Part shown: piece after piece, positions 15,392 through 16,880 of the stretch | Position numbering within the stretch: position 1 is the first letter of the stretch | Layout of the letters: every line of letters begins with the position of its first letter | Source of the DNA: Neolecta irregularis DAH-3 | Lineage: Eukaryota | Reading direction: 5' to 3' | Length of the DNA: 20,000 bases | Assembly: GCA_001929475.1 (NCBI GenBank) | Contig: LXFE01000211.1 | Coordinates: 52,561-72,560 of the forward strand | The notes under the pieces: generated by a model | Databases searched by the model: none | Seen by the model: only the letters and a program-made list of their open reading frames with translations | What the model was told of the DNA's origin: nothing | Program-made: the position numbers and the translations under genes

Positions 15392-16880
15392 TCAATTACT
15401 TTCGCGTATAACTTGGTCCACTGCCTTTGCAAAATACTCAACATTGGAGCTGTTCAGACCGGCCATGCTGATTCTCCCGTTTTGCGTCATATAAATATGA
15501 AACTCCGCCCGCAGTTTTTTGACTTGCAGTCCATTTAGACCTGTAAAAGAAAACATTCCAATCTGGTCGGTAATATGGTTCCATGTTCCAGGGGTGCCGA
15601 GTTTCTGAAAGTGGTTGAACAATTTTTGCCGCATGTCAATAATCCGATGCGACATTTCTCGAAGGTTCTGGCACCTATATCTAAACTCAAATGCATAGGA
15701 TTCCAAATACCATTCATTGAAAAGAGCTTTGTCGTTCAAAACTGTACTTACAATTCGAGCGCCGTAAGCAGGCGGGTTGGAAATTTCACTCCGTTGGAGA
15801 ATTTCTATTTGACTCTTGATTTTCTTGGCAGTTTCGGCATTCTTGCTAACAAAATGGAAACATCCCACTCGCTCACCGTAAAGTCCAAAGTTTTTGGCAT
15901 AGCTTTGACATACGATGAGTTCAAATCCCCTCTCGACAAAATATTGAATTGCCCATCCATCCTTATCGAGATCGCCTGAAGCAAACCCTTGATATGCGAC
16001 ATCAAGGAATGGAAAATGTCTTTTACGCTCCATTACATCCGCGATCTTAACCCATTGATCTTGTGTCGGATCCACTCCAGTGGGATTGTGCGCGCAGCCG
16101 TGGAGAAGGAAGATACTTCCGTCTGCAGCCGATTCCATAGCTGAGAGAAGTCCGTCGATATCGAGACCTCGAGTTTTAGTGTGAAAGTACGGGTAGTCAA
16201 ACAGAGGAACGCTGACGTTATTCCAGATCTGTTTATGATTCGCTCGAAATTAGAAGAATAAAAATACTCTGGATATACCCCAAGTCGGATTGCTCAAATA
16301 GCATGGGGTCTTGCCATCTTTGTAAAACTTGCTCATAAACAGAGCACCCAGATGATTTGCACCAGTTCCTGATATACTCTGTAACGAAGCAATCTAAAGT
16401 TGACTAAAATTTACCAAAGGAACATACTCTATGTTCTTTGATGGCCACAGAATCACCTCCGAAAGCCAACCTTGCTGAAGCTTCGGTGAACGAAGGAAGC
16501 CCTGCAATCGGAAGGTATTCGTGATCCAAACTCTTGTCATCTCGTAAGATCGCATCAGCCTATACTAATCAGCCTATTCTCCAAATACAAGTACTTTTTT
16601 GACAACAGGTAACACCCAAGGCTTCCCAGAATCATCCCGATAAGCACCAACACCCAAATTCACCTTTAATCAATATAATCTCCAAAACTTGGTTACCTTA
16701 TTTGTGGATTGATCAGCGTCATAAGCTGCGGTGATTTCAAATATGACATCCGGCGGTGCAAGCTCAACAGCTTCGAAAGCCGATACAGAACTCATGATCT
16801 ATAGAGATTAGAAGGCGTCCAAGCGCAGAGATCACTTGGTGTTTCAATTGTGTCAGACGATTTGCGGCTTCTCTTGACAT
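15392..16880 (-). CDS. AAT2: Aspartate aminotransferase, cytosolic type, with an upstream PTS2-bearing exon (alternative start at 16795)
   Basis: [67 protein letters not shown] (PLP lysine), GRISMAG. Introns at 16799..16835, 16664..16696, 16243..16278, 15675..15710 and two others. Confidence 0.93.

Follow-up and report, generated by a model that had tools for sequence, protein, structure and literature searches.

The cytosolic-type aspartate aminotransferase gene (AAT2) of Neolecta irregularis, which lies on the minus strand of the window (the whole 20,000-nucleotide stretch analysed), probably gives rise to a peroxisomal form from one start codon (ATG1) and a cytosolic form from a second (ATG2), both from normally spliced mRNA. 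Initiation at ATG1 would add a 16-residue leader containing a nonapeptide that would bind Pex7, and the enzyme would then be imported into peroxisomes. The cytosolic enzyme would come from ATG2, reached either by ribosomes that bypass the weak ATG1 during scanning or on transcripts that begin beyond ATG1. The peroxisomal aminotransferase pool would most likely pair with a malate dehydrogenase ending in SKL and recycle the NADH produced by beta-oxidation. Dual localisation had been proposed in the initial annotation, and it is supported by the conservation of the motif and of the second Met, by the presence of Pex7 in the genome and by the PTS1-ended malate dehydrogenase.

The largest exon was used as a query and retrieved OLL26270.1 (P0001), the Neolecta irregularis cytoplasmic aspartate aminotransferase, with 100% identity. 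The protein has a PF00155 domain and is 61-67% identical to fungal aspartate aminotransferases, many of which are labelled cytoplasmic. A more distant paralogue is encoded by a second gene on contig C1856 of the Neolecta genome. A five-intron model starting at ATG 16880 reproduces the 437 residues of OLL26270.1 letter for letter, and no further ATG occurs between ATG 16880 and ATG2. The initial annotation described ATG 16880, 15 codons, a 37-nt intron (16835-16799; GTGATC, CTAAT, TAG) followed by ATC ATG AGT, and an IRESN C terminus without a PTS1, and the sequence agrees on each point. Its remark that the ORF track misses the first exon is correct for a plain list of open reading frames and incorrect for the public annotation. 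A hidden or unannotated exon is ruled out because OLL26270.1 already contains the 15-codon exon 1 and the 37-nt intron 1. The features are as follows.

16926..16935, minus strand: two upstream ATGs (16935 and 16928) that open frames of 15 and 7 codons (from the sequence)
16894..16899, minus strand: possible donor GTGAGG upstream of ATG1, speculative (from the sequence)
16836..16880, minus strand: exon 1, ATG1 and 15 codons, with C at -3, weak by the purine rule (start of OLL26270.1)
16836..16859, minus strand: codons for nonapeptide positions 1-8, R8-Q15 (from the sequence)
16799..16835, minus strand: intron 1, 37 nt, phase 0, donor GTGATC, branch-like CTAAT at 16811-16807, acceptor TAG (five-intron model, identical to OLL26270.1)
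16697..16798, minus strand: exon 2 (gene model)
16796..16798, minus strand: Ile codon, the ninth nonapeptide residue (from the sequence and the start of OLL26270.1)
16793..16795, minus strand: ATG2, the putative start of the cytosolic form, with A at -3 spliced or unspliced (aligned with the starts of 24 short-form homologues)
16764..16766, minus strand: stop codon closing the 38 codons read from ATG1 on retention of intron 1, downstream of ATG2 (from translation)
16595..16663, minus strand: exon 3, after intron 2 of 33 nt (gene model)
16428..16559, minus strand: exon 4, after intron 3 of 35 nt (gene model)
16279..16393, minus strand: exon 5, after intron 4 of 34 nt (gene model)
15711..16242, minus strand: exon 6, after intron 5 of 36 nt with a GAG acceptor (gene model)
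15675..15710, minus strand: probable intron 6, 36 nt, in frame, stop-free and read through in OLL26270.1 (removal gives 425 residues)
15392..15674, minus strand: last exon, ending IRESN and then TGA, without a PTS1 (from the sequence)

The reading frame across intron 5 (16243-16278, minus strand) is kept only with the unusual GAG acceptor, which OLL26270.1 also uses. The six-intron model has the length of the JGI protein P0002, and the two are identical at 391 of 425 positions without a gap. The true long form is probably this 425-residue protein with intron 6 removed, rather than the 437 residues of OLL26270.1. A metagenome scan for the genomic DNA of P0002 gave one locus from 41 candidates, which was only 41% identical and of no use.

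The nonapeptide RLTQLKHQI occupies residues 8-16 of the long form, and the second Met (M17) follows directly. It lies inside the first 40 residues, the range given for a PTS2 in PMC7710942. R, L, L and Q stand where the pattern calls for [RK][LVI] at positions 1-2, a hydrophobic residue at 5 and [HQ] at 8. Position 9 is Ile where the consensus has [LA] or [LAF], and position 6 is Lys where the extended consensus has [LSGA], as these are worded in the excerpts of PMC4585086 and PMC7710942; the latter also proposes Met and Val at position 9 as likely functional. The earlier reading of RL-x5-QI as a PTS2 pattern thus holds at positions 1, 2, 5 and 8 and departs from the published consensus at position 9. 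A relaxed pattern, R-[LVIQ]-x-x-hydrophobic-x-x-[HQ]-hydrophobic, was of our own design and was fixed after the first homologue N-termini had been seen. It gave 20 matches in 80,739 residues of enzyme bodies, a background of about 0.002 per 8 start positions, and 105 in 399,840 in a six-frame 200-kb genome sample, likewise about 0.002 per 8 start positions. This background rules out a chance motif. Spacing and conservation suggest that the leader acts like a PTS2, yet the strict pattern fails; the leader is probably a real and functional feature. A predicted complex between Pex7 and the leader scored 0.01 in two runs and was not counted as evidence.

Conservation was measured with a C-terminal query that excluded the N-terminus. 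Among the 118 other matches, the N-terminal anchor was locatable in 60 and the remaining 58, mostly fragments, were dropped. The anchored homologues consist of 36 long forms and 24 short forms. The initial annotation had named a conserved RL-x5-(H/Q)(L/I) in fungal AAT2 orthologues as a check, and the relaxed motif is present in 35 of the 36 long forms, compared to an expectation of 0.14 from shuffled leaders; each of these 35 also carries a Met at the ninth motif residue or beyond it. Counted back from a conserved Asp, the second Met is at 16-25 residues and the start of the 24 short-form annotations at 15-23. Because these ranges overlap, gene callers appear to choose one start or the other. 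Addition of an N-terminal search, which is biased towards similar N-termini, increased the set to 237 proteins, 179 of them anchored, with 115 long forms. The motif is found in 107/115 and is accompanied by the second Met in 102/107, leaving five motif-bearing homologues that lack it, whereas the classic pattern is found in only 39/115. The ninth residue among the 107 is L (39), I (32), M (29), V (5) or F (2), and in 29 homologues the ninth residue and the second Met are one and the same. Position 6 is variable, with Lys in 8/107. P0002 retains 15 of the 16 leader residues, and the single change replaces the central hydrophobic Leu with Ile. The off-consensus Ile 9 and Lys 6 and the low count for the classic pattern weaken the two-start explanation.

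Judged by source name, the motif and second Met also occur in matches from Pezizomycotina, Basidiomycota, Mucoromycota and Glomeromycota. The source genera include ones that we assign to Dothideomycetes, Pezizomycetes, Agaricomycetes, Pucciniomycotina, Mucorales, Mortierellales and Glomeromycota. The Saitoella homologues P0121 and P0123 are annotated as short forms and have GKL ends, and homologues P0140, P0156 and P0159 have AKL ends, a PTS1; the signal type may switch between lineages.

ATG1 has C at -3 and ATG2 has A, which stays the same when intron 1 is retained. In Cryptococcus, strong starts have a purine at -3 (PMC7049704); by this rule, which may not be Neolecta's, ATG1 would be a weak first AUG and ATG2 a strong in-frame second one. 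Weak-then-strong AUG pairs lead to dual-localised proteins in Cryptococcus (PMC7049704) and in A. fumigatus Bol3 (PMC11285713). The bases at -3 point to leaky scanning or start-site choice as the main route, and no special splicing is needed to account for the two forms if scanning is leaky, perhaps in combination with transcription starts farther downstream. AAT2 was not found by term search in the supplements of the Cryptococcus start-site and start-codon papers, where the tables use gene ids and 12 of 23 files of PMC11302930 were covered. ATG 16935 (minus strand) is in frame with ATG2 if the donor at 16899 joins the acceptor at 16799, which gives a leader without the motif; this may be chance.

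Exon 1 joins the enzyme only via splicing because, in the frame of the enzyme, the TAG of the acceptor forms a stop immediately ahead of ATC ATG. When intron 1 is retained, ATG1 opens a 38-residue out-of-frame peptide that ends at 16766, beyond ATG2, so the initial annotation was right that retention shifts the frame. It had also held that the ninth signal residue exists only after splicing, but Val, a hydrophobic residue, stands there in the unspliced RNA, out of frame with the enzyme. A motif made solely by splicing is thereby ruled out; splicing links the signal to the enzyme as any first exon would and does not create it. There is likewise no support for reading the place of the intron within the motif as a dedicated switch. 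Retention alone gives no cytosolic enzyme because the 38-mer stops past ATG2, and use of ATG2 still requires leaky scanning or a downstream start because the retained-intron frame overlaps it. It is unlikely that splicing controls localisation, a scheme in which retaining the GTG-donor intron or splicing from the donor at 16899 would drop the peroxisomal form and leave the ATG2 form, perhaps in a condition-dependent manner. Such control would suit the donor of intron 1, which begins GTG while the remaining five introns of AAT2 begin GTA. In a crude and noisy count over the 200-kb sample, GTA occurs 60 times at 33-38 nt before branch-anchored acceptors against a background of 28.5, and GTG at the same distance is not enriched (21 against 20.7). 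The GTG donor therefore looks rare or atypical for the genome, in line with its earlier description as weak, but Neolecta donors vary at +4 to +6 anyway, both in the AAT2 introns and in the 200-kb sample. The GTGAGG donor 19 nt before ATG1 would remove ATG1 and the leader if joined to the acceptor at 16799, but the resulting 101-nt intron far exceeds the 33-37 nt of the AAT2 introns. A precedent exists in Candida GND1, which uses alternative 3' splice sites (PMC7491326), and regulated retention of intron 1 is possible. A composite scheme is also doubtful, in which an ancestral pan-fungal AAT2 with a PTS2, often with Ile or Met at position 9, and a second start acquired splicing control in Neolecta, so that micro-intron retention at the GTG donor or an alternative donor sets the peroxisomal share.

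Initiation at ATG1 alone, giving one protein with a weak, non-canonical PTS2 that is partly imported and otherwise cytosolic, would agree with the start of OLL26270.1, with the two off-consensus positions and with the five motif-bearing homologues that have no second Met. We consider it improbable, since the 102 others keep a Met where the short forms begin, which a single-start gene does not need, and the context of ATG1 is poor. A leader that does not function as a PTS2 in Neolecta, and is instead a relic, untranscribed or a mitochondrial signal, is very unlikely. N-terminal signals resemble one another (PMC4585086) and the ninth residue is non-canonical, but the leader of P0002 is nearly unchanged, PTS2 spacing is matched across fungi, the leader is poor in basic residues and includes one Glu, and a mitochondrial-type aminotransferase is encoded by a gene of its own. 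That second gene (C1856) has an Arg-rich leader, mitochondrial as judged by eye, so mitochondria seem to be supplied by it. Its leader region (L002, C1856 ~5000-5100) contains a short near-tandem repeat of about nine codons.

Two starts in one normally spliced mRNA also fit the peroxisomal machinery of the genome. The Pex7 gene (L073, contig C2646) has the public name PTS2 receptor (P0238). It was located by scanning 60 WD40 regions chosen among the 150 matches listed; three degenerate DNA patterns gave only unrelated genes or chance matches among the loci read. PDB entry 3w15_A is the sole match of its exon 1 (E 3e-6) and ranks fourth for its large exon, after three repetitive WD40 proteins. 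A peroxisomal-type thiolase carries the canonical PTS2 RLSQIASHL near its start (L015, contig C1203 ~2400-2430, plus strand), and this gene together with Pex7 places the pathway in Neolecta. Two near-alike thiolase genes about 3 kb apart on contig C4209 (34920-38857, plus strand; L010-L012 and L014) are an apparent tandem duplicate. Malate dehydrogenase is encoded by two genes, and the one on contig C2555 ends in SKL. The genome thus has a route for PTS2 cargo and a plausible partner for the shuttle. In this malate dehydrogenase gene (L084, C2555 ~67650-67722, minus strand), a possible short intron extends over the region of the stop codon; it has a CTAAC branch and two AG acceptors separated by 4 nt. 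This recalls fungal malate dehydrogenase, whose PTS1 is switched by retaining an intron or by using alternative 3' sites (PMC7491326).

The two-start layout of Neolecta AAT2 looks like an ordinary way of placing one enzyme in two compartments. If true, it is a further case of a metabolic enzyme split between cytosol and peroxisome through an optional N-terminal signal, and it leaves the understanding of peroxisomal targeting unchanged. Putative PTS2s in fungal Aat2 are already known (PMC6099311); the breadth of the motif and second Met across the four fungal groups and the Ile or Met at the ninth residue are modestly useful. Fungal peroxisome predictions probably under-call AAT2 because so few long forms have the classic pattern, and strict PTS2 scans would miss most cases because position 9 is often Ile or Met, residues that merit attention at this position in fungal AAT2.

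According to the excerpts of PMC6099311 (Thomas et al. 2018, citing Kiel 2009), either a PTS1 or a PTS2 is present in most Aat2 proteins of yeasts and fungi, and putative PTS2s are marked in the Aat2 of filamentous ascomycetes (Fig. 1A text and legend), the same enzyme family as in Neolecta. The excerpts say nothing of a second start codon or of Neolecta, basidiomycetes and early-diverging lineages. Titles and beginnings of abstracts, which leave subscription papers mostly uncovered and are weak evidence, gave no two-start mechanism for fungal AAT2, and the excerpts of PMC9549241, PMC7873862 and PMC11302930 add nothing on a PTS2 in AAT2. The terms 'aspartate' and 'AAT2' are absent from the text and seven supplement files of the Histoplasma peroxisomal proteome (PMC13343957), in which rows may be labelled otherwise and one row is an unnamed aminotransferase; this weakens the two-start explanation. 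So does H. polymorpha Aat2p, which has no PTS, depends on Pex20 and is peroxisomal without Pex7 (PMC6099311). S. cerevisiae Aat2 has a PTS1 (PMC6099311), in line with the C-terminal PTS1-like end given in the initial annotation. The S. cerevisiae and H. polymorpha enzymes share the cytosolic and peroxisomal localisation proposed for Neolecta but use other signals and have no N-terminal nonapeptide (PMC6099311). The Cryptococcus tRNA synthetases (PMC7049704) and A. fumigatus Bol3 (PMC11285713) share the proposed mechanism of isoform choice, but their leaders are mitochondrial signals, unlike that of AAT2. Another likeness is to fungal 6-phosphogluconate dehydrogenase, in which an optional N-terminal PTS2 precedes the cytosolic start of a metabolic enzyme (PMC7214817, PMC7491326). 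The PTS2 is optional in this enzyme by alternative splicing (PMC7491326, PMC3798809), as in Candida GND1, where alternative 3' splice sites include it (PMC7491326), and through a non-AUG start in U. maydis Pgd1 (PMC7214817). In contrast to Pgd1 and GND1, Neolecta AAT2 has an upstream AUG start with a weak context and a short intron that separates its two starts.
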